64,000 bases of DNA from a virus: the UHGV virus genome UHGV-0038496; one strand, 5' to 3'. This document shows, piece by piece, positions 1,050 through 64,000 of this stretch. Positions within the stretch are counted from its first letter, which is position 1. The number at the start of each line of letters is the position of its first letter. Under the pieces are notes generated by a model. That model was not told where the DNA came from. It saw only the letters and a list, made by a program, of their open reading frames with translations, and made no database searches. Both the position numbers and the translations under genes were made by a program.

Positions 1050-1971
1050 CACATGTTCAAGGAGTTCGTTACGCTCCCCCGCACCTTTACGTGCAAAGCC
1101 ACAAGATTTCTCCTGTGGGTCGGACTATCTCACGTTCCTAGATCAGCCACAGGAACCCTCCCATTTCGACCGCACTTGCTGGCCTACTCTACTCGCTTCT
1201 TCACATCAACCTGTGTTGACGCTATGCTTTCGATAGTCTCTGAACGCGACTACCAGGTGTAGTTTTTAGAGATGTGTTTCCACTGCCTTCTTTGCTTTAT
1301 GGCTCTGACTGTTCCATAAGGATACCCAAGATCCCTAATCTCGCACTGTCTCATACCACTTTGCAACAGTTCACAAATCTCTATCACCTCAGCTTCTGTT
1401 AGCACAGCGTTAGCGTTATACTCGCCTACTGGCCTAACTCTGAGGTCATTATCATAAGCGTGTTTGATATTTTTGCCTTGAGTTGTCCACTCCAGATTCC
1501 AGTATGCATTGTTGTACTTATTCCCATCTTTATGGTTCACATAGGTGAATTTTTCAGGATCAGGATTCGGTACAAAGCATTCAGCAACCAAGCGGTGAAC
1601 ACCTTTTGTACACTGCTTCCCATCAATGAACATGATTACGCAAAGGTAACCTCTACCGTTATCAAAACTGAACATTGTTGTGTGATCACGTTTAGATAAA
1701 GGTATTGTTCCGTCATCAAACACAGTGTATCCATGATAATCAAATGATCTAGCCATTTTAACTACACCTCTTTAGTCTTCGCTGCGGGTTGGCATATTGA
1801 GTTTTACCACATTTTGGCATAAAAGTCAACTTAGCGTTCCCGTCAATTAAAGAGGTTATTCGACATAGATTACTCTATGAAGCCACAATGATGTTTATGG
1901 TAATAGATGATTCTTCTGACACCTAGGTCATACCAAGTTTTATTATCTATTTTCAAGGTCATCAGGTTGCG
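1050..1971 (-). mobile_element. group I intron (about 0.92 kb) in the DNA polymerase gene, carrying an HNH ORF
   Basis: Conserved core elements read on the minus strand in canonical order: P-like AATTGACGGGAACGC (rc of 1834-1848), Q-like AACCCGCAGC (rc of 1781-1790), R-like GTTCAGAGACTATCG (rc of 1231-1245), S-like GAGATAGTCCGAC (rc of 1119-1131). Upstream exon ends in U (CAT), intron ends in G (GTG). Boundaries are predicted, not folded. Confidence 0.7.
1250..1756 (-). CDS. intron-encoded HNH homing endonuclease
   Basis: 168 aa with HNH_3-type motif VHRLVAECF...VNHKDGNKYNN..NLEW.T...N.KHA and a C-terminal HTH-like tail; RBS GAGGTG upstream; lies between the Q and R elements of the intron. 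Confidence 0.8.
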   Translation of the reverse strand: MARSFDYHGYTVFDDGTIPLSKRDHTTMFSFDNGRGYLCVIMFIDGKQCTKGVHRLVAECFVPNPDPEKFTYVNHKDGNKYNNAYWNLEWTTQGKNIKHAYDNDLRVRPVGEYNANAVLTEAEVIEICELLQSGMRQCEIRDLGYPYGTVRAIKQRRQWKHISKNYTW

Positions 1972-10048: not shown

Positions 10049-10057
10049 TCTTCCTCC

Positions 10058-51990: not shown

Positions 51991-52875
51991 TTATTTGTTG
52001 TCATGCATGTAGTTATTTTGCTCAGAAGGAACGATTGTAGAGTTACCACCATATTCCTGACGATAGGCTTCCTGAACAGTCATACCAGAGTTTTTTAGCT
52101 GGATGTTTTTCTGTCCGTCCCACTTCTGTTTAGCATTGGTGTATGTCGTATCTGCATACGGACTGGCATTAGCAGAGTTACCAACGTTACTGTCCTTCGT
52201 GCAATCGTTAACCGCACCTTTCTGTTTTGATTTATCAACCTTTTTAGGATTTGTGTAGACAGTAGCATTGACCATCTTGTTGAGGACGAAAGTTCTGAAC
52301 TCTGTCAGCTCAACATCGAACACCAAAGCAGCACCTTCACCTGTGCTTTTCTTCGCACTACATTTGGTAACTATGTAGTTTTCAAGGATAGCTTCCTCGG
52401 TTACCAACGTAACCAATTGTCTTCTCTTGATAACTTCACCCATTGCCTGTAATGCAGCTTCAGGCCTTGCAGAGTCTGCTGGTCTTTGTGGGTCAGTGTT
52501 TCTGTCAATGTAGTTTTGTTCGTACACTATGTGTGGTGAAGTATTCACCCTACCTGTGAAGGAGAATACTGCATCCTTGATCACTGCGTGATCCGAAATC
52601 GTAACACGGTCTTCGACCGCAAACTGTGTTTTATCAACACTTCTGTCGAAAGTATAATTCTCAATCTGGTCAAATATGATAGCGATATCGTTGGTGAAGT
52701 TTTTACCCTTCAACTCAATGTTACGACCACCATAATTCAAGCCGCTGATGAACAAAGTAAACTGTACGTCCTCTGTCTCTTTCTCAGCTTCTTCTGCCTT
52801 CTCTGACCTGACCAGCTGAGGTTTATATAGGTCTTTTTCATCGACCACTTTTTCTACACCGGGTGTATATGGCAT
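51991..52875 (-). CDS. hypothetical tail protein
   Basis: 294-aa ORF; RBS GGAGAGG; first gene after the terminator-promoter pair downstream of the tape measure gene. Confidence 0.45.
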   Translation of the reverse strand: MPYTPGVEKVVDEKDLYKPQLVRSEKAEEAEKETEDVQFTLFISGLNYGGRNIELKGKNFTNDIAIIFDQIENYTFDRSVDKTQFAVEDRVTISDHAVIKDAVFSFTGRVNTSPHIVYEQNYIDRNTDPQRPADSARPEAALQAMGEVIKRRQLVTLVTEEAILENYIVTKCSAKKSTGEGAALVFDVELTEFRTFVLNKMVNATVYTNPKKVDKSKQKGAVNDCTKDSNVGNSANASPYADTTYTNAKQKWDGQKNIQLKNSGMTVQEAYRQEYGGNSTIVPSEQNNYMHDNK

Positions 52876-52909
52876 AACCTCTCCAGTTGCTAGTAGTCAC
52901 CATTTCATA

Positions 52910-52938
52910 ATTATACCATAGAAATGGGGTTTTTACAA
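52910..52938 (-). promoter_or_regulatory. sigma70-like promoter with extended -10 (TTGTAA, 17-nt spacer, TGG-TATAAT)
   Basis: Read on the minus strand: TTGTAA (rc of 52933-52938), 17 nt, TGGTATAAT (TATAAT = rc of 52910-52915). Confidence 0.55.
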
Positions 52939-52954
52939 GTTACATAAAAGAAAA

Positions 52955-52971
52955 GGGGCCGCGAAGGCCCC
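52955..52971 (-). terminator. rho-independent terminator after the tape measure gene
   Basis: GGGGCC-GCGAA-GGCCCC hairpin followed on the minus strand by TTTTCTTTTATG. Confidence 0.7.
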
Positions 52972-52979
52972 TTGAAAGG

Positions 52980-54088
52980 TTAGTTAGTAGGACTTGCAAA
53001 CAGGTTAATATCTTTCCAATTTTCCCATTCAAATCTTGCATCCAGCATTTCTTCGAACTGAGCAGCGTCAAACTCGATTGTAATTTTACCCTCACCAACT
53101 TCCAGAGGAATTGGAGGAATTTCGAAGGATGGTAACGGATCCAAAGGTGTACTTGGAGTTGGATTAGCTCTGTAGGTAATCGGGTTAAGCATACGGTAAT
53201 CCAGGCCAAGGAAAGATGAAATGCCGTTAACACCATCGACAAGCCACTGCGGATGTTTGGTCACGTCAGTTTCCTGGTGGTAGTTTTGCATCCAATCATC
53301 CAACATACCAGCACCTTCGTACCCCATGTAGCCCAGAGCTAATGGTCCTTTCCATTTCCACAGTCCACCAAGTAACCGTGCAAACAATCCTTTCTTAGCC
53401 ATGGCTGCTGCACCACCCGCAGCTGCACCACCTGCGGCGGCACCACCGAGAGCACCTGCAACACCTCCGGCAGCTTTAATCATACCCAGGGTTGCGGCAA
53501 CAGCTTTGACGATTCTCAGCAATTTCCATACGGCGTTAACAACAACTAAGATGGAGAAAGCATAGCCTACCCATTTAGCTTTGCTGAATGTTTCATCAAC
53601 AGTGTCACTTGTATCTTTGACTTCTTTTTTCAGCAGACCAAAGTGGTCTTTGACTTGCAACCACCAGATACGGATACTGACAATCGTGTTGTTCAATTCA
53701 CCAACAATGTCGTTCAGACCCTGGATAAATCCAGATACAAACTCACCAGCCTGCATGATCATTGGGGTGAATGTTTCTCCTGTGCGGATCAGGGTGTAAT
53801 AAAACTCGGTGAGTTCATCTGACCATGTGGTGAACAGTTTTTGTTTAGTCAATTCGATGAAAGTTTTCAAACGGTTTTCAGCCAGAACGTTAGATTTCTG
53901 CATACGTTCATAACCAGCAGCTGACGCTTCGTTCATGTACTTAGCAACGTATTTCATCATTTTGGCTGTTTTGACCTGGCCTTTCTGCATCATGTCCATG
54001 AATTGTTCCATAGACAGCTCAGACAGGTTGAAAGCCTCTTTTGTTGCTTTAATGAACGGCTCGTAAGCACCTGGCATTGCTTCAGCTA
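52980..54088 (-). CDS. tail tape measure protein, exon 2
   Basis: Track ORF is TTG-initiated with an in-frame stop just upstream at 54108-54110; contains a Gly/Ala-rich hydrophobic segment (GGVAGALGGAAAGGAAAGGAAAMAKKG) typical of tape measure proteins; predicted 3' splice site after G at 54089. Confidence 0.6.
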
Positions 54089-54917
54089 CCAATGTCCAGA
54101 CAGTTCGCTACGCTGTCCCGGTGTGCTAAGACACCCGCCACACATTTCTGTGTGGAGCAGACTATATCTTCTCTGGATAACCAGAGCCAACCATTTCAGA
54201 GGCGCTTGCCTCTTACACCGCTACACTCATCACGGTTAGTCGTTGAGCACATAACTTATAAATCTTTCAGCAGTTTAGACCATGCTTTCTTAGTCTTGAT
54301 TCGAACAATTGCTGATCTGCAAGCACCAAATTCTTCCATCAAATCTGTTGTATTCTCAAACCGCCTGTTATAAATTTCGATAACCTCTTCTGCTGTGAGC
54401 TTATGATTGGCATTTGACTCACCAGAGGCATCATTCAGGCCATTTGCAAAAGCATGTTTCTGATTGCCAGATCGAGTAACATACTCCAGATTATCTTTAT
54501 GGTTGTTTGCTTTATTACCGTCCTTATGGTTAACTTCCATCCCAGGTTGTGGAGGTTCACCAAGGAAAGTAAGGGCAACTATTCTGTGAACAAGATACAA
54601 CACACATTTGCCGTTTACCCGAAAGTAAACGCGTTTGTAACCATTGTGTATTGTCTGCTCAGTCAACTGCTTCCGTGTGTTTCTTCTTGTAGAGAATATT
54701 GCACCGTCCTCTCTACAGAAGTACCCATCGTGACCAGGAACTGGTCGGATTTCTAAGTTACTTCGCTGCGGATTATCCATTGTTACATCCTCCAAACTTT
54801 TTACCATACCCCGAGTAGTTACTTCGGGCCATAAACATGTTACCACATTTATTTGGTATTTGGAAGGCTTTAGGAGCTTCCCGCAATTAGGTTGGTTTTA
54901 TAACAGCTAGTATGTCA
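54089..54917 (-). mobile_element. group I intron (about 0.83 kb) in the tape measure gene, carrying an HNH ORF
   Basis: Read on the minus strand: P-like AATTGCGGGAAGC (rc of 54876-54888), Q AATCCGCAGC (rc of 54765-54774), R-like TCAACGACTAA (rc of 54236-54246), S AAGATATAGTCT (rc of 54159-54170). Candidate P1: exon AACAGU pairs with intron GCUGUU, with U-G at the splice site. Intron 3' end GGACAUUGG is homologous to the polymerase intron 3' end GAACAUGUG. Boundaries predicted only. Confidence 0.65.
54256..54780 (-). CDS. intron-encoded HNH homing endonuclease (paralogue of the 1250..1756 product)
   Basis: HNH_3 motif VHRIVALTF...VNHKDGNKANNHKDNLEYVT...NQKHA; shared LTAEEVIEI block; start taken as ATG at 54778-54780 with RBS GGAGGA (track ORF extends upstream to 54846). 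Confidence 0.8.
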   Translation of the reverse strand: MDNPQRSNLEIRPVPGHDGYFCREDGAIFSTRRNTRKQLTEQTIHNGYKRVYFRVNGKCVLYLVHRIVALTFLGEPPQPGMEVNHKDGNKANNHKDNLEYVTRSGNQKHAFANGLNDASGESNANHKLTAEEVIEIYNRRFENTTDLMEEFGACRSAIVRIKTKKAWSKLLKDL

Positions 54918-56142
54918 ACTGTTGTTTTAGTTCCTCAGACATTACCTGTCCTTTACCAAGCATTTGCTGTATCGCCATAATACCACGCTGATATTTTACT
55001 TCATCAGCACCATATGACGCAGCATATTGCGAATAAGCAGAGAACAGATCACGGACTTCCTGCCCTGTCATTTGGTTTTTGGCGTTTACTGCCATTTGAG
55101 AGTAGCCTTGCAGACCTGATTTCAGGTCGAAGCCTAATCTCATAGCTTCACCTTGTACGAATGCAACTTCCGAGTTAGCTTTCGTAGGATCACCCATAAC
55201 GTTGGTAAGAGCAGCACTCGCACCTTCCATCATGTGACCGGATTTGTTAACACTGACAATTGCAGAGAATGCGGTGTACGCTTTAGTCAAATCCATGACT
55301 GTTGTTCTTAATTTATTAAAAGCGGTGCTCAGAGTCATGGTTCCAGCAGCAGCATTAGCAAACCCCTTCTGCATTGCAGCGATCTGGGCGTTGAAAGTTG
55401 ACTTACCTATCAACCCTTTTGCATATTGCTGTTCAACCTGACGGTAGCCACCTAACATATCCCTAAAATTAGCCCCATAACGAGCTGTCAGACGCGTTGA
55501 CATGTTGGTAAGGTGTGTTAGCCTATCCATACCCACATTATTGCGTTTGGGCGTTCCTGAGCTGCCATTTTGCTTGTGCCATCTGTTCATTGCAGCAGTC
55601 TGGGCACGAACAAGTGCTGGGTTGGAAGCTACACCACCCATGTTGGGGTTACCTGGGATATATCTGAAGGTATTTGCTCTGGACAGAGCACGGGGTGAGA
55701 CTGGTTTGTTGGAGAAGTAGGAACTACCTAAGCCACCACTTTTCTTAGCCAGTTTGGATTGTTCCTGATAGAATTTACGCATTCTCACCAATTCAGGATC
55801 TTTGGCAGTCATCTGACCGACAACCTGTTTCCTTCTGGCGTTCTCACGTTTTTCTATCGCAGATCGTACAGCAGCTTCACGTTTAGCCTGGGATACAGCT
55901 TCCTGATGCATACGGCGTTGCTGTTGCAACTGTTTATTCTGTACCCTCTGAACAATCTGACCAGTCTTCTCCATCGATGCTTGCCAGGCTTTCAGAGGAT
56001 TCCCCTTTCCCAAAGAATCGCCCAGCTTTGTAAACTCCCTGCCTAATCCTTTAATTCTTTCAATAGCTTTTTTATAGCTATTGTTATCGATCTCAAATGT
56101 AATTCGGTTTGTGGTTGTGGCAACCACTTTGTTACCAGCCAT
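54918..56142 (-). CDS. tail tape measure protein, exon 1
   Basis: Long alpha-helical, Q/A/K-rich N-terminal region; RBS AGGAGAG before ATG at 56142; the track ORF continues three codons into the intron to a TAG at 54907. Confidence 0.6.
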
Positions 56143-56167
56143 ATTCTCTCCTGGTTAGTAATAAAAA

Positions 56168-56196
56168 AGGGCCGGATCCTTTCGGAACCAGCCCTT
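56168..56196 (-). terminator. rho-independent terminator (probably partial) upstream of the tape measure gene
   Basis: Long hairpin AGGGCTGGTTCC-GAAA-GGATCCGGCCCT followed on the minus strand by TTTTTTATT; no promoter between it and the tape measure start. Confidence 0.6.
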
Positions 56197-56200
56197 TGCT

Positions 56201-56446
56201 TTAACGTCTACGTTTCGCTTTTGCCTGGGCTATCCTGGCTTCTTGCTCTCTCTCAAACTCTTTGTTTTGAACACCGTCAAGGAACTCTTCTATGTCAAGA
56301 TACTCACACAACATCAAGAAGTAGTCCATGTCGGCGCTGTTGAGAGATTCATAGTTCTCACCACGAAACCCTTTCAACACTTTACACCACAGGAAATCGA
56401 ACCAGCTAAGTGAGCTATGCTTCCTTGCCCACTCGCTGGCCTGCAA
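56201..56446 (-). CDS. hypothetical protein (tail assembly region)
   Basis: 81-aa ORF between the chaperone-like gene and tape measure. Confidence 0.4.
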   Translation of the reverse strand: MQASEWARKHSSLSWFDFLWCKVLKGFRGENYESLNSADMDYFLMLCEYLDIEEFLDGVQNKEFEREQEARIAQAKAKRRR

Positions 56447-56457
56447 TACGACTTTGC

Positions 56458-56922
56458 TTATTCCTGAGTTTCCTGGTCCAGACTGTTGATCTGATGCGCC
56501 ATTTGCAATCCCTGCAACATCGCCATCAGGCCGTCTAAACCTTCTTGCGTGAAAAAAGATCCGTAGTTAACCTCCAGCACTTTACCAGCCAGTTTGAGCA
56601 TTGCAAACAGGTTGCCAGCGAAGAGTGCATCTATGTCTACTTTATCCACGCCATCAACGACAACATCTGCGAACAGGATATCGAACAGTTCGTCAATCGA
56701 TTTATCGTCAAGTTGTTCGAATAAGTACACCAGTGCGGTTGGTAACACTTCTGCGAGGTTTTTACCACCGTTCAACAATTCACCACCAATGGCTCCCATC
56801 GGCACTGCAATAATCCTGCCAATTTTAGGAAGGTTATGCATTGCCTGGCGTGGTCCCCAGTGATTTATAATGAAGTTGTGTCCGACTAAATCTATTTCTG
56901 TAGTAGGTCTGAAGTTTGGCAT
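56458..56922 (-). CDS. putative tail assembly chaperone
   Basis: 154-aa ORF in the position typical of tail chaperones, upstream of tape measure; RBS AAGGG. Confidence 0.35.
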   Translation of the reverse strand: MPNFRPTTEIDLVGHNFIINHWGPRQAMHNLPKIGRIIAVPMGAIGGELLNGGKNLAEVLPTALVYLFEQLDDKSIDELFDILFADVVVDGVDKVDIDALFAGNLFAMLKLAGKVLEVNYGSFFTQEGLDGLMAMLQGLQMAHQINSLDQETQE

Positions 56923-56969
56923 TTCTCGTTACCCTTAAAGTTAGTTGTCATGCGTTATCGCATAGATTT

Positions 56970-56998
56970 ATTATAGCATTGTACTCACTTTTTGTCAA
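56970..56998 (-). promoter_or_regulatory. consensus sigma70 promoter (TTGACA, 17-nt spacer, TGC-TATAAT) followed by a short inverted repeat
   Basis: Read on the minus strand: TTGACA (rc of 56993-56998), 17 nt, TATAAT (rc of 56970-56975) preceded by TGC; the hairpin ATGCG-ATAA-CGCAT lies at about +5 to +20. Confidence 0.6.
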
Positions 56999-57008
56999 TG
57001 CAAACAGA

Positions 57009-57026
57009 AAGCCTCCGAAGAGGCTT
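57009..57026 (-). terminator. rho-independent terminator overlapping the nuclease stop codon
   Basis: AAGCCTC-CGAA-GAGGCTT hairpin followed on the minus strand by TTTCTGTTTG. Confidence 0.55.
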
Positions 57027-58563
57027 ATAACCACTTAGCTCTCCATACCCATTTAATCTTACCACTATCCCACAACCGGATAGCCCCAACCAAATCTTCT
57101 ATCTCCCGCTCTGTACGAGGATCAATAGACTTATCTGGGTTGAAGTCTACATCAGATCTGCCAATCTCCTCCAGACGTTTAGGAATCAATCGACGTTGCC
57201 AGTGTGGTTTCGGACGCAAACCATTAGCAGGGTGGAATACTCTGTAGTCAGGTTTGCCATACGTTTCAGCAACAAATCCCAACACTTCATAAACCCCACC
57301 AGCGAAGTAGTCATTCATACTGAATGAACTAACCTCTTCTGGATTATTCTCCCTGATAAACGTTTTAAACAGTCTAGATGCCCCACCACGAACAGAACAG
57401 CTTGATGCAAATCTTGATAACTCCCATGTTGCCTTAGTCGTACCGTTAGCTCTGGCCTGACCTCTCGTAGTTTTACCGTAGCCGAAGCTCATGATTGCTA
57501 CAATTTCACCTTCTTTCGTTTTCAGAGCCAGATTGATAGGGTTAGGAGAATGGCCCTGCGGGTGGTAAGCGTCGTAAAACTCTTTGCACTCTATTGATTT
57601 TAGATGCACAACTTCACACTCCCTGGCATTTACTTTACGCTCACCATTACACCCCAAAGCATGAGCCAGCAACTGGCTGAACACTTTCTGGTTGTTATCC
57701 CAATCATAGTCCGTGATCTGGATCAGGCGAATACCTTTCTCTTTACAGGCTAACCACTTGTTGTAATGGTAGTCTTTAGACTTATGATTATCACCATGCC
57801 AGAAGACACCGTTAACTTCAATCGCCACACGTTTTGATGGGACAAAGATATCTAACTCTTTGCCATCATCCAAGATAGTGCGGTTAGACTGCTCCGCGTC
57901 TGGACAGATAGATTTTACAAAGTCAAAGACAGATCCTTCCACTTTAGAAGTCAATTTTGCACAATGCCTGCACCCATGACCTCTGTGAATGTGTTCTTTC
58001 ACAGGCTGTTGGAACTCTGATCCACATTTTGTGCATTCAATATTGAGAATGCCTTTCTTCCTTTCATCATAAAACATACTTTTGTAAACGTATTTATCTT
58101 TGTGGACCTCTTTAGCTTGTTCCACAACTTCTTCAAAAGAGTTTCTGCTTTTTCTACCACGAGTCATGTTAGCACAACGAGGGCAGCCCTGTCCTCTCAA
58201 ATGTTTGCTAGGTTTTTGTGAGAACACGCCGTGGTCAGGGCAAATAATGTTCACATTTGTCACTCTATCTTTATACACAACCTCAGAGTAATCGTAACGA
58301 TCACCATGTTTTTCTTTGGCCTTTTCGATAAATTCTTCCCTGTTTCCACGTTTACGCTCAAGGTAACATTCTTTGCACCCCTCCCCTTTTCTGTGAGCAT
58401 TCGCTTCTACCGAAAACACGCCATGTTTTTTGCAAATAATGTTAACTTTTTCTCTGCTACCTTTGTACTCAGTTTGACTGTAATCATACATTTCTTCAAA
58501 CTCAGGGTTTTCTTTGAAGACGGCTGTTAGCCATTCTTCTTTTGTATAACCTTTTCCAGCCAT
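57025..58563 (-). CDS. putative homing-type endonuclease: three tandem zinc-ribbon-like repeats plus Vsr-like PD-(D/E)xK nuclease domain
   Basis: Three roughly 45-aa repeats (Y.YS...Y......NIICP.HGVF......H..G.GC..C); nuclease-like block DIFVPSKRVAIEVNGVFWHGDNH resembling the FVDGCFWHGH core of Vsr (from memory); start set at ATG 58561-58563 (MAGKGYTKEEW...) with RBS AGGAG. Confidence 0.65.
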   Translation of the reverse strand: MAGKGYTKEEWLTAVFKENPEFEEMYDYSQTEYKGSREKVNIICKKHGVFSVEANAHRKGEGCKECYLERKRGNREEFIEKAKEKHGDRYDYSEVVYKDRVTNVNIICPDHGVFSQKPSKHLRGQGCPRCANMTRGRKSRNSFEEVVEQAKEVHKDKYVYKSMFYDERKKGILNIECTKCGSEFQQPVKEHIHRGHGCRHCAKLTSKVEGSVFDFVKSICPDAEQSNRTILDDGKELDIFVPSKRVAIEVNGVFWHGDNHKSKDYHYNKWLACKEKGIRLIQITDYDWDNNQKVFSQLLAHALGCNGERKVNARECEVVHLKSIECKEFYDAYHPQGHSPNPINLALKTKEGEIVAIMSFGYGKTTRGQARANGTTKATWELSRFASSCSVRGGASRLFKTFIRENNPEEVSSFSMNDYFAGGVYEVLGFVAETYGKPDYRVFHPANGLRPKPHWQRRLIPKRLEEIGRSDVDFNPDKSIDPRTEREIEDLVGAIRLWDSGKIKWVWRAKWL

Positions 58564-58596
58564 CGAAAAACTCCTAGTAGTTTTAAACACAGGGGA

Positions 58597-58626
58597 ACTA
58601 TACCACAAAACATTAGCTTTTGTCAA
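58597..58626 (-). promoter_or_regulatory. sigma70-like promoter with extended -10 (TTGACA, 18-nt spacer, TGG-TATAGT)
   Basis: Read on the minus strand: TTGACA (rc of 58621-58626), 18 nt, GTGGTATAGT (TATAGT = rc of 58597-58602); about 30 nt upstream of the nuclease RBS. Confidence 0.55.
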
Positions 58627-58642
58627 ACCCTATAAACAAGAA

Positions 58643-58662
58643 AGGCCACCCGAAGGTGGCCT
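58643..58662 (-). terminator. rho-independent terminator after the tail tube gene
   Basis: AGGCCACC-CGAA-GGTGGCCT hairpin followed on the minus strand by TTTCTTGTTTATAG. Confidence 0.7.
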
Positions 58663-58668
58663 GTAACA

Positions 58669-59142
58669 TTAAATGATACCAGTTAAACCTGCAAGTCCCA
58701 TCATTGCAGATTCAATGTTATCTTTGTTCAACCAGCAATCCAGTACGCCGATTTCCCAGTCCAGTTGTGCAACTTCTGTACCGTAGGTCAGGTCAGGTTG
58801 CTTCTGGATCCAACCGATTGTGGAAATACCAGGACCCTGGCTACCTTCCAGCAGAACAGGGAAGAATACAAGCCCTGTGATAGATGCTTGTTTCTGCCAG
58901 TCTGACAGGTAGGCGTTCCATGCTGCTGTGTTCTGGAGAGATACAGTCATTACACCAGATTGGTTACGGGATAATGCTGCACTCATTTCACCATCCACGC
59001 CTACATGCGGGTAGATGTTATCTTCGTTACGAGAGACAACGATTTTGGTGTCTGCCGCAAAACCTGATACACGCTGACCCATCAAATAAAGTTTTACTTT
59101 TTTCGGGTCATATGCATAGGGTGTTAAAATATCTGTGACCAT
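58669..59142 (-). CDS. putative tail tube protein
   Basis: 157-aa ORF immediately downstream of the sheath gene, with RBS AGGAGGG; gene order sheath-tube typical of contractile tails. Confidence 0.55.
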   Translation of the reverse strand: MVTDILTPYAYDPKKVKLYLMGQRVSGFAADTKIVVSRNEDNIYPHVGVDGEMSAALSRNQSGVMTVSLQNTAAWNAYLSDWQKQASITGLVFFPVLLEGSQGPGISTIGWIQKQPDLTYGTEVAQLDWEIGVLDCWLNKDNIESAMMGLAGLTGII

Positions 59143-59153
59143 TTACCCTCCTG

Positions 59154-60539
59154 TTACGCAGTCATTGCCTGGGCATTCGTGCTGGTTGTACCAGTTTTAT
59201 CCAGCAATACATTGATGCGGATTTTCACGAAGTGCAGAGCATTGTTGTAAACCATTTCTACTTTAACACCTTCCAGGGTACGAGCAGCCAGCTGGTTAGC
59301 AGGGATGGTAGCACGTTTTGGAACAGTGATAATCGGATCGTAGAATACGCTGTTTTCTTCATCATACCCAGTCAGGATAGCACCGTTACGGATACCAACG
59401 TTGATCGGGTCGTTCATCAGAACAGATTTAATAACAGGCAGGTCGTCATCAGACATTTTCATGCTCATGCCCATGTTGGATCTGCGATGCATGTAGCCAA
59501 ACATAGATTCTTCGGAACGGAATTTGATCCAGTGGGAGAATCTGATTACGTCAGCATATTGGCCTGAAGCGCATTTACCTTCCCAGAAGCAACCAACACC
59601 GTTGATCATTCTGTAGAAGTTCAGGTTGTTGTCCCACAATGCCATTCTCTGACCGACACCCATGTTCGGAGGAGTGATACCTGGCATTTTTTTCAGGTGT
59701 AAGCTGTCACCATAAGACGGGTCATTGGATGCCATTGCACCGATGATACCACCTTCTGGGAAGTCCATGTTAGCACGAGGATCCCACATACCTAAAGTAT
59801 CAAGCTGGAGCTGTTTGAGAGCATAACCAATACCACTTTCTACACCCATTGCATCTTGATCAGCAGTGGAGTAAACGTGAAGTTTGTAGTTAGCTTGTGC
59901 CCATTTTGCAAGAGCTGTGATAGCAGTAACGCTGTGGTCTTCGGAGCACAGGAAATACCAGTTACTGTTTTCATCATTAATGTCATCAACGACTGTCTGA
60001 GGAGTTTCACTGGATTTATTTTCAATTTTGAAATCGCCAGCACCGTAGCCAACGGTAGCACCTTTGATGGTAACTTTACCGGAGTTAGCTTTAGCAGTTA
60101 CACTGGCACCTGACAAGATTTCATCACCAGTAATAGCTGTAGCCAAAGCCTCAGCGATTGTGGAAGCAGCAGTACCACCACCAACTGGAATGACTATGGC
60201 GCGATCATAATTAGGGATTGCTACGTTTACGATAACTTGGGATTCAGCTGGGAATACGCCACCAACAAAGTCAACAACAGTTTCTGTTGCAGCCTGACGA
60301 CCGATGACGATGTATTGCGGCGGGAACTCACCACCGAAAGCGTTAGAAGCGAAGGTGTGAGCAGCACTGCCTGGTGCAAAACCATCGTCAACTAACTGAT
60401 CGAGTTCAGCGTAAACGCGAGCGCGTTCAGTAAAATTATTGTGGATGGCAATAAACAAGGGAGTTTCGAAGCCTACTGTGTCAATCGGCTGTGTACCCAG
60501 GTTTACTTGCACATCGACAACTTTATCATTGTAAGGCAT
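59154..60539 (-). CDS. putative tail sheath protein
   Basis: About 461 aa (track ORF is GTG-initiated at 60566; ATG at 60537-60539 has RBS AAGAGGAAA); size, composition and position upstream of the tube gene. Confidence 0.6.
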   Translation of the reverse strand: MPYNDKVVDVQVNLGTQPIDTVGFETPLFIAIHNNFTERARVYAELDQLVDDGFAPGSAAHTFASNAFGGEFPPQYIVIGRQAATETVVDFVGGVFPAESQVIVNVAIPNYDRAIVIPVGGGTAASTIAEALATAITGDEILSGASVTAKANSGKVTIKGATVGYGAGDFKIENKSSETPQTVVDDINDENSNWYFLCSEDHSVTAITALAKWAQANYKLHVYSTADQDAMGVESGIGYALKQLQLDTLGMWDPRANMDFPEGGIIGAMASNDPSYGDSLHLKKMPGITPPNMGVGQRMALWDNNLNFYRMINGVGCFWEGKCASGQYADVIRFSHWIKFRSEESMFGYMHRRSNMGMSMKMSDDDLPVIKSVLMNDPINVGIRNGAILTGYDEENSVFYDPIITVPKRATIPANQLAARTLEGVKVEMVYNNALHFVKIRINVLLDKTGTTSTNAQAMTA

Positions 60540-60611
60540 TTGTTTCCTCTTCAATATCTTGTGCACAGGATATTAACAAGCAGCATAATCATTACGCTGC
60601 ATGGAGAACGA

Positions 60612-61160
60612 TTACTGACCAGGGTCGATAACCGCTTGACTGTCATCAGCAGGGTGGAGAACATGAAGCTCAGCTTCGATGCCCTGAAGATCTTCGAACG
60701 CTGCCATGTCAGTCTCAATAAACCTGACGTTAAACGTCATCATTACTGTGGCTCTTACCTCATATGCTTGCTTATTCATCGGGACTCGCAGAGGTGAGAT
60801 TGTAGAGGCCGAAGAATAGGCGTACATAGAACCACCAGGAAAGAATTTATCGTAAAACATCGGAAGGTTTATTGCTTGCAATAATCTGGACAATGCTGCA
60901 TATGCTTTACCACGGTAGGCAGTTAACATATAGGTAACTGTGTAATTGTGGGTAACGTAAGCAACACCCTCTTCGGTCTGGAACTCGTTATCTTCCCAGA
61001 TGTGAGGTTGGATACCCATCGTTTCAAGAAGGATAAACTCACCATCTGGTTTTGGAATGATCTCCTGATCACCCATGATGACACGTCTGCCTGTGGCAAC
61101 TCTTGCCATCTTAGCGACAATTTCCTCCAGATCATTAAAAACTTTTTCAAACTCTTCCAT
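60612..61160 (-). CDS. hypothetical neck / tail completion protein
   Basis: 182-aa ORF upstream of the sheath gene. Confidence 0.35.
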   Translation of the reverse strand: MEEFEKVFNDLEEIVAKMARVATGRRVIMGDQEIIPKPDGEFILLETMGIQPHIWEDNEFQTEEGVAYVTHNYTVTYMLTAYRGKAYAALSRLLQAINLPMFYDKFFPGGSMYAYSSASTISPLRVPMNKQAYEVRATVMMTFNVRFIETDMAAFEDLQGIEAELHVLHPADDSQAVIDPGQ

Positions 61161-61597
61161 CAGATTGTGTCTCCTTCGTTATTTGTGGGTTCTTCCACAA
61201 CATAGGAGCGGTATCTTTCCACACCTGACGTATGATACTGATCGCATTTCAGAACAGTGAACCATGTTAATTCACCATGCAGGTTAGGCAACTGAATCTG
61301 ATCTGCAAGCTGGTATTCCCCTTCATTTGGGCTACGCAGACGTACAGAGGAATAAACCGTATACGCTTCGTATTGTCTACCACCTTCGGGGTTAATTTGC
61401 GAGGAGTAGTCTTTAGCCGCACGGCCTGTTAAAGGCTGCATAACGCATTCTAAAACATCGAACTCTTCTATCTCAAGCTCAACACCTTTGTTAGCAAAAG
61501 GGCTGTTATCGATGCGTTTAAGCGTTCTGTGACGACCTTTGAAAGTCTTCCTAGGAATTAATTTATTTTTACCAATCAATCTGTAGCCTACAGCCAT
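61160..61597 (-). CDS. hypothetical neck / tail protein
   Basis: 145-aa ORF with start/stop overlap. Confidence 0.35.
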   Translation of the reverse strand: MAVGYRLIGKNKLIPRKTFKGRHRTLKRIDNSPFANKGVELEIEEFDVLECVMQPLTGRAAKDYSSQINPEGGRQYEAYTVYSSVRLRSPNEGEYQLADQIQLPNLHGELTWFTVLKCDQYHTSGVERYRSYVVEEPTNNEGDTI

Positions 61598-61607
61598 TCA
61601 ACCTCCA

Positions 61608-62075
61608 TTAGTCTTTTAATTGTCCGATCTTGAAGGTTGCCGACTCAAGCAACACATCGTAATGACGCATAGCTTCGTTAAAGCCTTTTTCTTGCGCCCA
61701 TTGTTCGCTTACCGTTGGATTGCTGAACATTCCCGCCTCGATAACGAACTTGATGGCCTCGGCCCCGCCTTTACCGATTTGCTTCAGGACAGTATCTGGA
61801 CTTGCCCCGCGCGATAAAGCACGAAGCAGTCGTTCCATCTGCTTGGGGAGTTCCGCATTGTAAAATACGAAAGCTGTTTCCATGAAATTACGAACCGGAA
61901 GACCATTCCAGCCAAAGTTATGAATTGCAGCCAGTGTTGCCATATTCAGGCCGGAGTAATGTTCTTCGTCGTAAAATCCATAGGAGATAGTTTTACTTTC
62001 CAGCTTAATGAGTTCCCTGTGGAACCTTTCAAGCTGCTTAAAATTGGTTTTAGAAGTGCATTTTATTCTAAGCAC
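61608..62075 (-). CDS. hypothetical head-tail joining protein
   Basis: 155-aa ORF (GTG start in track) directly downstream of a promoter. Confidence 0.35.
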   Translation of the reverse strand: MLRIKCTSKTNFKQLERFHRELIKLESKTISYGFYDEEHYSGLNMATLAAIHNFGWNGLPVRNFMETAFVFYNAELPKQMERLLRALSRGASPDTVLKQIGKGGAEAIKFVIEAGMFSNPTVSEQWAQEKGFNEAMRHYDVLLESATFKIGQLKD

Positions 62076-62093
62076 TTTGCCCCCAATAGATAA

Positions 62094-62122
62094 ATTATAC
62101 CACAGGCTGCAACAATTTTCAA
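62094..62122 (-). promoter_or_regulatory. sigma70-like promoter with extended -10 (TTGAAA, 17-nt spacer, TGG-TATAAT)
   Basis: Read on the minus strand: TTGAAA (rc of 62117-62122), 17 nt, TGGTATAAT (TATAAT = rc of 62094-62099). Confidence 0.5.
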
Positions 62123-62137
62123 TACTAATTTAGCAAA

Positions 62138-62800
62138 TTACCTGCGAGATGGGTATCTTTTTGGTTGTCCAGGTGAACCACTCATAGGTGTGATACCAGA
62201 AACATCAAAGCCACAAACACTGTTACTATGACGTTTAACTCTCTGGAACTCATCTTCACGAACACCACCGATGATAACCAGTCTACCACAGGAATCCAGT
62301 TCAGAGTCAACATAGTCTGGGTTAGCAACCAACCAGTCAAGGAAGTCTCTCCAGCCCTGCCATGTGGTCTGGCCTATGCGAACTTCAACACTTTCATCAC
62401 CGATTTTTTCCATACGGGAACTAATGCTGGACTCACCGCTCGCAACTTCCTGGACCATCAGCCAGCGAACAGCTTGTACCATTGCATCGTATTTGACATT
62501 CGGCAATCTTTCTGGATGATTTTCCAGATCATGTCTCATTACTGCCATTTCAACAAACAAGGCCAGAGTTTCAGGTGGTAACACCTCTTTTGATACATTG
62601 CCCAGCAGGATACGAATAAATGCTGACAACGAATCTTCTCGACCGAACTCAGGATCAATATCATCATCTGGTACAGTTGGCAATTCCGGCTCCGGTTCTG
62701 TTGGTTCTTCAGGTTCAACTGGATCTACTGGTGCTTCGCCTTCACCAGTGCCAGGATCTTGAGAAGTAGGGACTACCTCTTCTTCTTCATACCACGCCAT
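62138..62800 (-). CDS. hypothetical head / neck protein with acidic Pro/Glu-rich N-terminus
   Basis: Start set at ATG 62798-62800 (MAWYEEEEVV...) with RBS GAAGGAGA; track ORF starts at an upstream GTG. Confidence 0.4.
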   Translation of the reverse strand: MAWYEEEEVVPTSQDPGTGEGEAPVDPVEPEEPTEPEPELPTVPDDDIDPEFGREDSLSAFIRILLGNVSKEVLPPETLALFVEMAVMRHDLENHPERLPNVKYDAMVQAVRWLMVQEVASGESSISSRMEKIGDESVEVRIGQTTWQGWRDFLDWLVANPDYVDSELDSCGRLVIIGGVREDEFQRVKRHSNSVCGFDVSGITPMSGSPGQPKRYPSRR

Positions 62801-62833
62801 TCTGTCTCCTTCAAGGATTATGGACACTTAATT

Positions 62834-62862
62834 ATTATACCATGATGACTACAAATTAGCAA
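62834..62862 (-). promoter_or_regulatory. sigma70-like promoter with extended -10 (TTGCTA, 17-nt spacer, TGG-TATAAT)
   Basis: Read on the minus strand: TTGCTA (rc of 62857-62862), 17 nt, CATGGTATAAT (TATAAT = rc of 62834-62839); the -35 overlaps the last codons of the HNH gene. Confidence 0.5.
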
Positions 62863-63548
62863 TGTAGCCATTCAAGAGGCTCAGTAAGCTCCATTTTGTT
62901 ATGTTTTTCAAGATTCATTGCTGCTGGGATAAGCTGCCAGTTCATATGCCAGTGTAAACCACCTTTAGACAGTGGAATCATATGGTCTACGTGCCACTCT
63001 ATCCCAGTTTCTTCCTTACGGATTTCTGCAAGCTCAAACATCTCTTGCAGTACAAAATCATCAAAATCTGAATACCATTTTGGTATAGCGTGCCGTTTTA
63101 TCTCATTTCTGCGAATAGTTGCATTAAGAAACAAATGTTTATTTCGACGATAAGATGCTGCCCTGCGAGCTTTCATCTTCTCTGGGTTAGCCTTCTCCCT
63201 ACGCCTCCTGTTCTCACAGATTCTATCCTTGTTTTTAGCATAGCGTTGTTTATCGTACTCTCTTGCCTTTTCAACATCAGCAGCACGTTTCGCTTTGACC
63301 TTCTCTTTTATCTCTTCACCTTTCCTGGCATAATACTTTTTAGCACGTTGCTTGTGCTCTTCCAACAACTTCTCCCTATTATCAGCATAGTTCTGTCTGT
63401 CTTTCTCGCGGCTGCATTCCAAACATGCTCCGTTAACTGTTAATCTTTCACAAATGTGACCATGTTTGCAAGGCTTACCAGTAAAATAGCGCACCATTCC
63501 ACGTTCTTTAGCAATACTTCTTTGAATGATGTGTAAGTAAAGTTCCAT
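62856..63548 (-). CDS. free-standing HNH endonuclease with N-terminal Cys-rich zinc ribbon and basic coiled region
   Basis: Classic HNH core EWHVDHMIPLSKGGLHWHMNWQLIPAAMNLEKHNK; N-terminal CKHGHICERLTVNGACLEC; K/R-rich linker; RBS GGGGGTG. Confidence 0.75.
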   Translation of the reverse strand: MELYLHIIQRSIAKERGMVRYFTGKPCKHGHICERLTVNGACLECSREKDRQNYADNREKLLEEHKQRAKKYYARKGEEIKEKVKAKRAADVEKAREYDKQRYAKNKDRICENRRRREKANPEKMKARRAASYRRNKHLFLNATIRRNEIKRHAIPKWYSDFDDFVLQEMFELAEIRKEETGIEWHVDHMIPLSKGGLHWHMNWQLIPAAMNLEKHNKMELTEPLEWLHC

Positions 63549-63602
63549 AACACCCCCTATCTCATTTCAAAGAAAGTATAACACAACTGAATATAAAAAT
63601 AA

Positions 63603-63630
63603 AGCCCCAGACCCGAAAAGGTGTGGGGCT
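63603..63630 (-). terminator. rho-independent terminator
   Basis: AGCCCCA...TGGGGCT hairpin followed on the minus strand by TTTATTTTTATAT; downstream of the partial gene at 63653..64000. Confidence 0.6.
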
Positions 63631-63652
63631 AGTAGTGGTGTAATTTTTAATT

Positions 63653-64000
63653 TTACGCTCTAAGAGCTGCTTCGAAATCTTTCATCATGTTGGCGAAAGT
63701 TTTATTTCGAGCTAAGCTCACACCGTATTGTTTAGCGAATGCTTCAAGAGCCACTTTAGAGCCACTCTTGTCTGCTTCGTCTTCTAAAGCAGCAGCTTGC
63801 TGTAGGATGGCATCGACGCTATCGGGAGCAGCTTCTTCCATACTCATTGTCATTATAGCTGGCTCCGCATCCTGTGATTCAGCAGGCGCTGGAGTTTCAG
63901 TTTCACCACTGTCTTCTACAGGCGGTTCAGGTTCTTTCGGTTGTTCCGGTTCTGGCTCAGGATCAGGCTCTGGCGCTGCTGTAGAGATCAGACCTAAATT
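63653..64000 (-). CDS. hypothetical structural protein, partial (N-terminus beyond the window end)
   Basis: Continuous minus-strand reading frame from the window edge through a Pro/Glu-rich segment (PEPDPEPEPEQPKEPEPP) into the 66-aa track ORF ending ...FEAALRA. Confidence 0.45.
   Translation of the reverse strand, partial: NLGLISTAAPEPDPEPEPEQPKEPEPPVEDSGETETPAPAESQDAEPAIMTMSMEEAAPDSVDAILQQAAALEDEADKSGSKVALEAFAKQYGVSLARNKTFANMMKDFEAALRA

Follow-up and report, generated by a model that had tools for sequence, protein, structure and literature searches.

The window, as we call the whole stretch of 64,000 nucleotides that was analysed, comes from a metagenomic Vequintavirinae-like (rV5-like) gut myophage. 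Its 470-aa protein is a tail sheath with 71% identity to that of Vequintavirus, which rules out the T5-like phage that had been guessed from the many HNH genes. Towards the end of the window, a gene for an HNH-family endonuclease is found between a Phage_Inh_N-like head gene, which in the full contig codes for 283 aa and matches PF26097 and PHROG 3259/1051, and a head-to-tail adaptor gene (Table 1). The original prediction had placed the HNH gene in the head/neck region, between a terminator and a promoter, without giving a strand; this placement was confirmed, with both signals on the minus strand. An identical copy of the HNH protein is present on four assembled contigs.

Table 1. Features of the HNH locus, in coordinates of the window.
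Feature	Position	Strand	Details
Upstream head gene, 3' part, Phage_Inh_N-like	63653..64000, off window end	-	TAA 63655..63653
Intrinsic terminator, stem-loop AGCCCCACACCUUUUCGGGUCUGGGGCU then UUAUUUUUAU	63593..63630	-	stem-loop 63630..63603
Inserted cassette, compared with empty alleles	62845..63592	-	748 nt replace 7 nt CAGCTTA, net +741 bp
Extended -10 TGTTATACT, putative promoter of HNH gene	63575..63583	-	sequence-level prediction; TGTTATAAT in L009/L010
Shine-Dalgarno AGGGGG of HNH gene	63558..63553	-	AGGAGG in relatives
HNH-family endonuclease ORF, 230 aa	62856..63548	-	ATG 63548..63546, TAA 62858..62856
Residues 20-45, YFTGKPCxxGH...CxxC Cys/His ribbon, putative zinc ribbon	63414..63491	-	conserved
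Residues 46-155, basic helical repeat region, putative DNA-binding module	63084..63413	-	35% K+R
Residues 184-217, beta-beta-alpha-metal nuclease core EWHVDH...N203...N212..K215	62898..62999	-	Pfam HNH 184-217
Sigma-70-type promoter of adaptor gene, predicted	62834..62862	-	TTGCTA-17-TGGTATAAT
Head-to-tail adaptor gene, 220 aa, PF26075 Phage_Adaptor_PhiTE	62138..62800	-	SD GAAGGAGA

The terminator upstream of the HNH gene has a folding energy of -17.7 kcal/mol (z = -4.4), with none of 200 shuffled sequences folding as well, and it is kept, with variants in loop and stem, in all relatives and in the rV5-like phage JohannBauhin. At the other end of the gene, the -35 element TTGCTA of the adaptor promoter (62862..62857) overlaps the HNH codons His-Cys-stop, in keeping with the last codons to which it had been assigned, and is followed by a 17-nt spacer and by TGG TATAAT at 62842..62834. 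A second extended -10 element (TGTTATACT), missing from the original prediction, lies directly upstream of the HNH gene. Transcription would be expected to start some 7 nt past each -10, near 63568 for the nuclease and near 62827 for the adaptor. The motif TGNTATAAT was found 5 times in the window versus 2.2 expected, in all five cases on the coding (minus) strand. For the adaptor gene, ATG 62800 is the true start, and not GTG 62827 of the ORF list, which is only about 7 nt past the adaptor -10 element. When the HNH 5' leader was compared with shuffled sequences in search of an RBS-sequestering hairpin like those of some T4 endonuclease genes, no such structure stood out (z = 0.16).

The N-terminal ribbon of the protein, anticipated as Cys-rich, contains Cys27, Cys33, Cys42 and Cys45 together with His29 and His31; Y21, G24, C27, G30, R35, C42 and C45 are invariant among 43 family members, and the AF2 model shows small beta elements in this part. 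The long K/R-rich helix that had also been claimed corresponds to residues 46-155, where 35% of the residues are Lys or Arg, the pI is 10.45 and long helices are predicted. This region is the most divergent part of the protein among alleles, and the number of repeats varies across the family. In the C-terminal part, the motif WHVDHMIPLSKGGLHWHMNWQLIPAAMNLEKHNK (residues 185-218) reads HVDH...N...N, and D188, H189, N203, N212 and K215 are the catalytic residues that are invariant in the 43 homologues. The description as a classic HNH (HVDH...N...N...H) therefore stood for the HVDH and the two Asn residues but not for the final His: since H216 is not conserved, the motif is a D-H..N..N ('HNN') variant and not a classic H-N-H. 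The 230-aa protein also scores below threshold against Pfam HNH (17.2 bits for a cut-off of 21.4), which was counted against the homing-type reading developed below. This cut-off is passed by 6 of the 43 aligned homologues, with a best E-value of 9.9e-12, and several database relatives carry precomputed PF01844/PF14279 matches.

In the AF2 model (pLDDT 89), the core is formed by strands 185-189 and 204-208 and helix 209-215. The top 24 matches of a Foldseek search of this model against the PDB were all HNH-containing proteins, but weak ones (E 0.38-7), while sequence searches of the PDB with the protein and with a 43-sequence profile only returned spurious matches to synaptotagmin and to the MAT1 coiled coil, and no matching family was found in NCBIfam. 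By its catalytic motif, the predicted protein belongs to the HNH / beta-beta-alpha-metal superfamily. The dN/dS values of the gene with respect to its orthologues (0.09-0.23) correspond to purifying selection, and the 230-codon frame is intact. Together with the invariant catalytic residues, these data indicate that the gene is functional; nuclease activity is a predicted property of its product.

Since a megablast search of the GenBank phages with a 2-kb query around the HNH locus gave no match, presence and absence of the gene were determined in metagenomic relatives (L-numbered contigs); with a 24-kb query, matches were limited to tail genes of rV5-like phages, at about 75% identity. The gene is absent from at least eight close relatives (L003-L006 and L025-L028), and also from JohannBauhin, the rV5-like reference phage examined. 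In the eight empty alleles, the order terminator-ATCAGCTTACA-TGTTATAAT-adaptor is uninterrupted, with 9 nt between the terminator and TGTTATAAT, and the distance from the terminator to the adaptor ATG is 67 nt, compared to 808 nt in the window. The adaptor -10 and all sequence downstream of it are common to the HNH-less alleles, and the empty contig L005 and the occupied contig L009 are 94-100% identical over about 4 kb on each flank. Thus, the absence from close relatives with an intact promoter, by which the original prediction would recognise a homing element, was observed. Terminator, both -10 elements and the HNH ORF are conserved in independent metagenomic relatives. In carriers of the gene, nuclease and adaptor are each preceded by an extended -10 element of their own.

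The same slot is occupied by at least four distinct alleles (71-87% aa identity) from independent samples, and further alleles of at least 90% identity exist. One contig contains a split allele (P0121/P0126). All empty alleles carry the spacer CAGCTTACA and none of them has the left-hand spacer of the occupied alleles; therefore, the empty sites are not deletion products. When the whole IMG/VR collection was scanned with the HNH protein, none of four HNH-less contigs of 117-140 kb was returned, and only relatives with at most 39% identity, on unrelated contigs, were detected. The gene is not relocated elsewhere in these four contigs. In the 5' region of the adaptor gene, no position consistently told occupied from empty alleles, a result that was counted against the homing-type reading and from which it follows that the target would include the junction or the terminator, or lie further away. 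Differences in the terminator loop were considered as a polymorphism linked to occupancy and discarded, the terminator of the empty contig L025 being the same as that of the occupied L011.

These data bear directly on the other possibility raised by the original prediction, namely an HNH protein that cooperates with terminase in packaging; HK97 gp74 and the HNH proteins encoded beside cos sites are of this type. The HNH gene does lie within the morphogenesis cluster, and its N-terminal zinc-ribbon-like motif recalls some cos-site HNH proteins (PMC3592412). However, the nearest terminase ORF, corresponding to the C-terminal part of terL, is located about 5.7 kb upstream, outside the window (in L002, 3547-4332 versus 10001-10693 for HNH), and the portal, protease, scaffold, decoration, capsid and Inh_N genes, six in all, are in between; the HNH gene has neither terminase nor portal nor a genome end as its neighbour. 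It has no counterpart in the eight close relatives, one of them near-isogenic, or in JohannBauhin, and no copy above 41% identity was found in GenBank phage records. Moreover, there is no [CxxC]2 zinc site around the catalytic core, with not a single Cys in positions 156-229. Packaging HNHs are of roughly 100-130 aa, whereas this protein has 230 aa with a long helical insert. Because the gene is missing from nearly identical relatives, the HNH protein is not a component of DNA packaging, and we consider this explanation, which fails on distance to terminase, dispensability and zinc site alike, to be extremely improbable.

The history of the HNH gene is uncoupled from that of its flanks. In the comparison of the window with L011, dS was 1.36 in the HNH gene and 0.085-0.18 in two downstream genes, the 155-aa ORF and HCP, that is, synonymous divergence was 8-16 times as high in the former, while the downstream genes are 92-98% identical. 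The gene itself is a mosaic along its length, the helical module having 43-73% nucleotide identity to the L011 allele and the 3' nuclease domain 83-98%. For phage nuclease genes in general, a clustering of recombination breakpoints has been reported (PMC10448857). The gene is free-standing and intergenic: its start and stop codons are distinct from those of both neighbours, and an Rfam search at 62800-63650 gave no group I intron match. An intron-encoded HNH was discarded as well: the only Intron_gpI match in 52000-64000, at 54138..54927 around another HNH gene, stayed below threshold (24.8 bits). The family has a patchy distribution among unrelated phages (Autographiviridae-like Klebsiella, Xanthomonas and Ralstonia phages), its members adjoining different genes and being present in 2-4 copies per genome, which, as judged from these sequences, fits a mobile nuclease. 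Genes of this kind abound in the host genome: HNH_3 ORFs lie within or beside the genes for tape measure and terL, and the tail tube is followed by a DUF723 endonuclease.

We therefore think it probable that the ORF is a free-standing homing-type (D-H..N..N) endonuclease gene forming a selfish mobile cassette of about 750 bp, with the activity and the target as predicted properties. During co-infection with a relative lacking the cassette, the enzyme would nick or cut the empty allele at or near the locus. Binding to DNA would involve the zinc ribbon at the N-terminus together with the basic helical repeats, and cutting would be done by the C-terminal beta-beta-alpha-metal site, in which H189 may act as the general base and D188/N212 may hold the metal, and recombinational repair from the cassette-bearing genome would copy the cassette into the broken one. 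Just past the terminator, the cassette would have an extended -10 promoter and a ribosome-binding site of its own, and the adaptor gene would retain an extended -10, now with the -35-like TTGCTA provided by the last HNH codons. Because of the extended -10 promoter on each side of the cassette, its insertion would have no polar effect on the neck and tail genes, which are essential.

The same arrangement of promoters could also mean that the cassette moves by promoter/terminator-mediated recombination, as PeSLs do, with the HNH gene as mere cargo and no nuclease-driven homing. In L009 and L010, the same 9-nt TGTTATAAT is present on both sides of the HNH gene, and the cassette could be gained or lost through recombination between the promoter copies on either side of it, with no nuclease involved; this repeat is, however, only 9 nt long, whereas PeSLs, for which there is precedent in T4-type phages (PMC2839356), are longer composite motifs. 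Recombination between the promoter copies would also leave the left-hand spacer behind, which none of the empty alleles has. Elsewhere in the cluster, the only two full-consensus TTGACA-N-TGnTATAnT promoters of the window (none expected by chance) lie on either side of the DUF723 endonuclease, each preceded by a TTCG-loop terminator, and the slot that follows the tail tube is filled by different ORFs in L003 and L004. At both sites, HNH and DUF723, the cargo is nevertheless a nuclease, as homing predicts. We regard movement by recombination with a passive nuclease as unlikely, although the two mechanisms are not mutually exclusive.

Purifying selection on the HNH gene would also be expected of a domesticated nuclease that benefits the phage, by exclusion or degradation of co-infecting competitor genomes, by resolution of branched DNA in the manner of T4 endonuclease VII or by binding and regulating the neighbouring promoters, much as I-TevI represses its own. 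'Endonuclease VII' is indeed the label of PHROG 1035, to which the protein is assigned, and the promoter region of the HNH gene mirrors the promoter of the empty site in terminator tail, 11-nt distance and -10, its extended -10 and the single promoter of the empty alleles being equally far from the T-tract of the terminator; the protein might thus bind there as to an operator, in the way described for I-TevI (PMC2988022). Against such a role, the gene is dispensable in close relatives, marker exclusion is a consequence of homing and not a separate function, and neither T4 endonuclease VII nor any other solved nuclease was detected with the protein or the 43-sequence profile. Membership of the T4 endonuclease VII family was rejected on the same PDB searches and on the lack of a PF02945 match for the HNH query, a domain carried by only one of the 120 homologues listed. 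A beneficial, domesticated nuclease is thus a quite unlikely explanation. A further proposal, to which we also give a low probability, is that the promoter duplication has a function: the terminator-promoter junction of empty sites would be what the nuclease recognises, insertion would split it, and the two partial copies left at the HNH promoter and at the adaptor promoter would serve as operators, making the protein an I-TevI-like repressor of itself and of the neck and tail genes. If true, it would add a dual function to a free-standing HNH protein of an uncharacterised subfamily with a zinc ribbon, swappable basic helical repeats and a D-H..N..N core and, taken jointly with the DUF723 gene between its two promoters, would imply that in rV5-like phages PeSL-like regulatory cassettes shuffle nuclease cargo through the structural cluster.

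In T4, intergenic free-standing HNH genes with an overlapping downstream promoter have been a textbook matter since the 2000s. The cassette described here is ordinary in kind, rV5-like phages being already known to be full of such genes. Following the homing-type reading, the gene should be annotated as a free-standing HNH homing-type endonuclease, and neither as 'endonuclease VII' nor as a packaging HNH. The near-isogenic occupied and empty alleles, with a junction precise to the base, offer a natural experiment for finding the target of the widespread HNH subfamily PHROG 1035. In addition, the predicted promoters illustrate how polarity may be avoided, an extended -10 being brought or kept on each side so that the neck and tail genes would stay expressed.

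Among known systems, the 'endonuclease VII' proteins of PHROG 1035 from Klebsiella, Xanthomonas (FoX1-5), Ralstonia and Escherichia ep3-type phages are true full-length homologues with the same ribbon-repeats-nuclease architecture (32-41% identity, E-values of 1e-19 to 1e-41 in the records listed); the best GenBank relatives, at 41% identity, are in unrelated phages. The name 'endonuclease VII' on these proteins is annotation only, and no solved structure or described member of the subfamily was found. HK97 gp74-type packaging HNHs (Xu and Gupta 2013, PMC3592412) share with our protein the HNH superfamily, the morphogenesis region and a zinc-ribbon-like accessory motif, but this gene is away from terminase and not conserved in relatives, and its product lacks [CxxC]2 and is much longer. 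Like the PeSL cassettes of T4-type phages, in which cargo ORFs lie between repeated terminator-plus-promoter motifs in collinear genomes (Arbiol et al. 2010, PMC2839356; PMC4122927), the HNH slot shows a terminator-promoter pattern, which is clearer around the DUF723 gene. Unlike PeSLs, which have early promoters, the promoters here are sigma-70-like and within the structural cluster, and the repeats are short, as seen in sequence alone.

The abundance of HNH genes is shared with the Certrevirus/Vequintavirinae phages, which are of the same broad group and have many such genes, both free-standing and intron-borne, including one in terL; an example is the related Certrevirus Pectobacterium phage CB7 with its 21 HNH endonuclease genes (PMC7344957). 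The contig of the window follows this habit with HNH_3 ORFs at terL and within the gene for the tape measure. Apart from the gene described here, the HNHs found in the contig, two in the window and one beside terL, belong to Pfam HNH_3 (IENR-type), whereas this one belongs to a different HNH subfamily, PHROG 1035.

The closest parallel in organisation is with the T4 free-standing endonuclease genes, which are intergenic and often embed a downstream promoter in their own coding sequence, favouring their retention (PMC2988022). The overlap with the adaptor promoter, correctly foreseen, is therefore a known theme and no peculiarity. As in the 'intronless homing' genes mobA-mobE and seg (Edgell, Gibb and Belfort 2010, PMC2988022; mobE, PMC2790892), the HNH gene stands alone between conserved phage genes and is polymorphic among close relatives; as in segG, segA, segE, mobB and mobC, the promoter of the essential gene downstream overlaps the endonuclease coding sequence; and, as in some seg genes, it has its own, here predicted, promoter. 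It differs from mob and seg genes in its rV5-like lineage and in an architecture, known here from sequence, of zinc ribbon, basic helical repeats and D-H..N..N core.

The HNH gene predicted among the head and neck genes proved to be a real minus-strand ORF, and the signals expected around it, a terminator before it and a promoter after it whose -35 lies in its last codons, were all present (see table). A second -10 element, missing from the original prediction, was found 5' of the ORF. The sub-threshold Rfam isrL match at this place extends over the upstream gene end and the terminator hairpin only, and was read as a terminator look-alike rather than an sRNA. In the window, TGNTATAAT extended -10 matches occur at 44015, 52910, 56970, 62094 and 62834, all five on the coding strand (-) and four of them just 5' of structural genes (Dit-like protein, tail assembly chaperone, 155-aa protein and adaptor), which suggests that host sigma-70-type promoters recur through the structural cluster. 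The adaptor junction of the rV5-like phage JohannBauhin is without an extended -10 match of this type.

Features of the HNH locus, its protein and the other nuclease genes (window coordinates unless a contig is named)
Feature	Position	Strand	Remarks
Upstream gene, 3' end	stop 63655..63653	(-)	runs past window edge
Terminator stem-loop, then UUAUUUUUAU	63630..63603 (stem-loop)	(-)	-17.7 kcal/mol, z = -4.4 vs shuffles
Rfam isrL match	63598..63676	(-)	sub-threshold, 27.1 bits vs 35-bit gathering score
Extended -10 TGTTATACT	63583..63575	(-)	11 nt past terminator, 5' of HNH ORF
Shine-Dalgarno AGGGGG		(-)	between TGTTATACT and HNH ORF
HNH ORF	62856..63548	(-)	230 aa; ATG at 63548, TAA 62858..62856
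-35-like TTGCTA	62862..62857	(-)	overlaps final HNH codons His-Cys-stop
TGGTATAAT	62842..62834	(-)	17 nt beyond TTGCTA
GAAGGAGA, then adaptor ATG	62800 (ATG)	(-)	
Insertion relative to empty alleles	62845..63592		748 nt in place of 7 nt; net +741 bp
HNH protein, part 1			N-terminal motif YFTGKPCKHGHICERLTVNGACLEC
HNH protein, part 2			middle, 110 residues; 35% Lys+Arg, pI 10.45
HNH protein, part 3			C-terminal motif WHVDHMIPLSKGGLHWHMNWQLIPAAMNLEKHNK
DUF723 / PHROG 559 endonuclease gene	57025..58626	(-)	533 aa
TTGACA-N-TGnTATAnT promoters	58626..58597; 56998..56970		each after TTCG-tetraloop terminator (region 56970..58662 (-))
Tape-measure gene, apparently split	52980..56142	(-)	N-part 54907..56142 (411 aa, PF20155 TMP_3); C-part 52980..54092
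HNH_3 ORF between tape-measure parts	54256..54846		Pfam 2.3e-13
Rfam group I intron match	54138..54927		sub-threshold, 24.8 bits, E 0.0066
Further HNH_3-type ORF	1250..1756	(-)	168 aa; Pfam 8.4e-06, just above threshold
HNH_3 ORF directly 5' of Terminase_6C-only ORF	L002 2661..4332		227 aa and 261 aa; outside window, about 5.7-7 kb beyond position 64000

The N-terminal Cys-rich ribbon and K/R-rich helix that had been predicted were both found in the protein. Pfam HNH scored 17.2 bits against residues 184-217, under the 21.4 cut-off, and PHROG 1035 ('endonuclease VII') matched at 1.7e-20. A large protein database contained 273 homologues at E <= 0.001, and 43 of these were aligned. Since six of the 43 pass Pfam HNH (best E-value 1e-11), membership of the HNH superfamily is well supported by transitivity. 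In this alignment, Y21, G24, C27, G30, R35, C42 and C45 of the Cys/His ribbon and D188, H189, P192, G197, N203, N212 and K215 are invariant, but H216 varies. Hence, the description as a classic HNH protein holds for the superfamily and fails for the final His, and the catalytic signature is instead D-H..N..N. T4 endonuclease VII and I-HmuI share this arrangement; there the metal is bound by Asp and Asn, and the His acts as general base. In the AF2 model (mean pLDDT 89), a small beta element at the N-terminus is followed by helices over 43-153 and 161-181 and then by a beta-beta-alpha unit at 185-215. No solved structure, T4 endonuclease VII included, was matched by sequence to the protein or its family, and the 'endonuclease VII' label of PHROG 1035-type HNH proteins is therefore unsupported. 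Family members in GenBank belong to unrelated phages of Klebsiella, Xanthomonas (FoX), Ralstonia and E. coli (ep3), adjoin different genes, e.g. primase, and in some genomes occupy 2-4 places, a distribution typical of homing endonuclease genes.

A metagenome contig of 140.7 kb from ENA, which contains the window (mapping checked), codes for an identical protein. The neighbouring 470-aa protein is a tail sheath with 71% identity to Vequintavirus (rV5-like) phages, and DNA identity to the tail genes of rV5-like phages is about 75%; judged from these values, the phage is an uncultured and divergent relative of the Vequintavirinae. Along the contig, the genes run HNH_3 ORF, terL C-terminal part, portal, protease, scaffold, decoration, major capsid, Phage_Inh_N-like gene, the HNH gene under study, adaptor (PF26075), 155-aa protein, head-closure, tail terminator, sheath, tube, DUF723 endonuclease, tail assembly chaperone, tape measure N-part, HNH_3 and tape measure C-part. 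The assignment to the head/neck region was correct, and the terminase, searched for beyond the window, is about 5.7 kb away with six genes in between. In JohannBauhin, the homologues of the flanking genes are 59 bp apart, with nothing but a terminator and a ribosome-binding site between them. Low-complexity linkers that are rich in Pro and Glu and differ in length were observed in the Inh_N-like head protein (63653..64000 (-)) and the adaptor N-terminus (62660..62800 (-)); across relatives, Inh_N lengths are 184, 283, 284, 311 and 349 aa, and the adaptor measures 220-233 aa (including contigs L003 and L009-L011).

Relatives were collected by adaptor-protein scans of IMG/VR and metagenome contigs and by exact look-ups of HNH orthologues. 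Eight of them (L003-L006 and L025-L028) carry an empty allele without the HNH gene, in the order terminator, AT, CAGCTTACA, TGTTATAAT, AATTAAGTG..., adaptor, with TGTTAAAAT as the -10 in L006. At least four distinct occupied alleles (window/L002, L009, L010 and L011-L015) have a 230-codon HNH gene in exactly the same slot. In 200-nt windows, the flanks of occupied L009 and empty L005 match at 94-100% identity for about 4 kb to either side. Absence from close relatives with an intact promoter, which the original prediction had tied to a homing element, was found in all eight empties, and it rules out a required role in packaging. A packaging HNH is also contradicted by position and zinc-site architecture (PMC3592412). 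A scan of the whole of IMG/VR with the HNH protein returned none of the four HNH-less contigs (117-140 kb), so the gene has not just been relocated within these genomes. The CAGCTTACA spacer is present in all empties and on the left side of no occupied allele, so the empties are not simple deletions between the two -10 copies. Empty L025 and occupied L011 share a 94% identical left flank and the exact terminator; occupancy is thus scattered across backgrounds, as a mobile element predicts.

All full-length HNH alleles keep the reading frame, with pairwise dN/dS of 0.09-0.23. Between the window and L011, dS was 1.36 in the HNH gene versus 0.085-0.18 in the two downstream genes tested. In the same comparison, the central basic helical module (nt 110-410) has only 43-73% nucleotide identity, with no indels, versus 83-98% in the 3' nuclease domain (92-98% in the downstream genes), which suggests exchange or replacement, or very fast divergence, of a putative DNA-binding module. 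This module was placed at 63084..63413 (-) and compared with L011 872..1171. On one 18.5-kb Logan contig, which carries P0121 and P0126, a frameshift at an A-run after QRAKK divides an orthologue of at least 90% identity into ORFs of 77 aa and 163 aa; this reflects decay of the copy or else an error of assembly. At the sequence level, these data show a nuclease-family gene that is mobile and maintained by selection, occupies one fixed intergenic site and has transcription signals both before and after it. A domesticated function, such as competitor exclusion, junction resolution or promoter regulation, is still conceivable, although the gene is dispensable in relatives.

The prediction that this is the fourth HNH gene agrees with a count that includes the 168-aa HNH_3, DUF723 and tape-measure-associated genes. 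The tape-measure HNH_3 is probably a homing endonuclease carried by an intron within a tail gene. The HNH_3 ORF next to an ORF with the C-terminal terminase domain alone suggests a split or intron-containing terL, an arrangement like that of JohannBauhin, where terL is annotated as a joined CDS; terL of phage CB7 was shown to splice (PMC7344957). The DUF723 gene lies between the only two full-consensus promoters in the window (none expected by chance). In L003 and L004, different ORFs occupy its slot behind the tail tube, a hot spot for cargo that recalls the T4 PeSL cassettes. A PeSL-like recombination through repeated promoter and terminator motifs (PMC2839356) is plausible as a contributing route at the HNH locus.

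For homing itself, we propose that in a mixed infection the enzyme would nick or cut the empty allele and repair would then copy the cassette in, i.e. the 'intronless homing' of T4 seg and mob genes (PMC2988022, PMC2790892). Comparison of occupied and empty alleles identified no cleavage target; the adaptor 5' region has no fixed differences between them, and terminator differences were not linked to occupancy. The cassette would be non-polar, with an extended -10 for both the HNH and the adaptor gene. That of HNH lies at the same distance from the terminator tail (11 nt) as the single promoter of the empties, and that of the adaptor is kept in occupied alleles, with downstream sequence identical to the empties; the adaptor promoter would now have the -35-like TTGCTA that comes from the HNH 3' end. 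Free-standing HNH endonuclease genes are already known to be abundant in the Vequintavirinae-like group, with 21 in CB7 (PMC7344957). The subfamily of the 230-aa protein is uncharacterised, and with near-isogenic alleles of both kinds, empty and occupied, its target can be approached by experiment. Promoter overlap has already been described for T4 elements: downstream-gene promoters are embedded in segG, segA, segE, mobB and mobC, and this helps the endonuclease gene to be retained (Edgell et al., PMC2988022), and the HNH gene resembles them in that the downstream promoter overlaps the endonuclease coding sequence.
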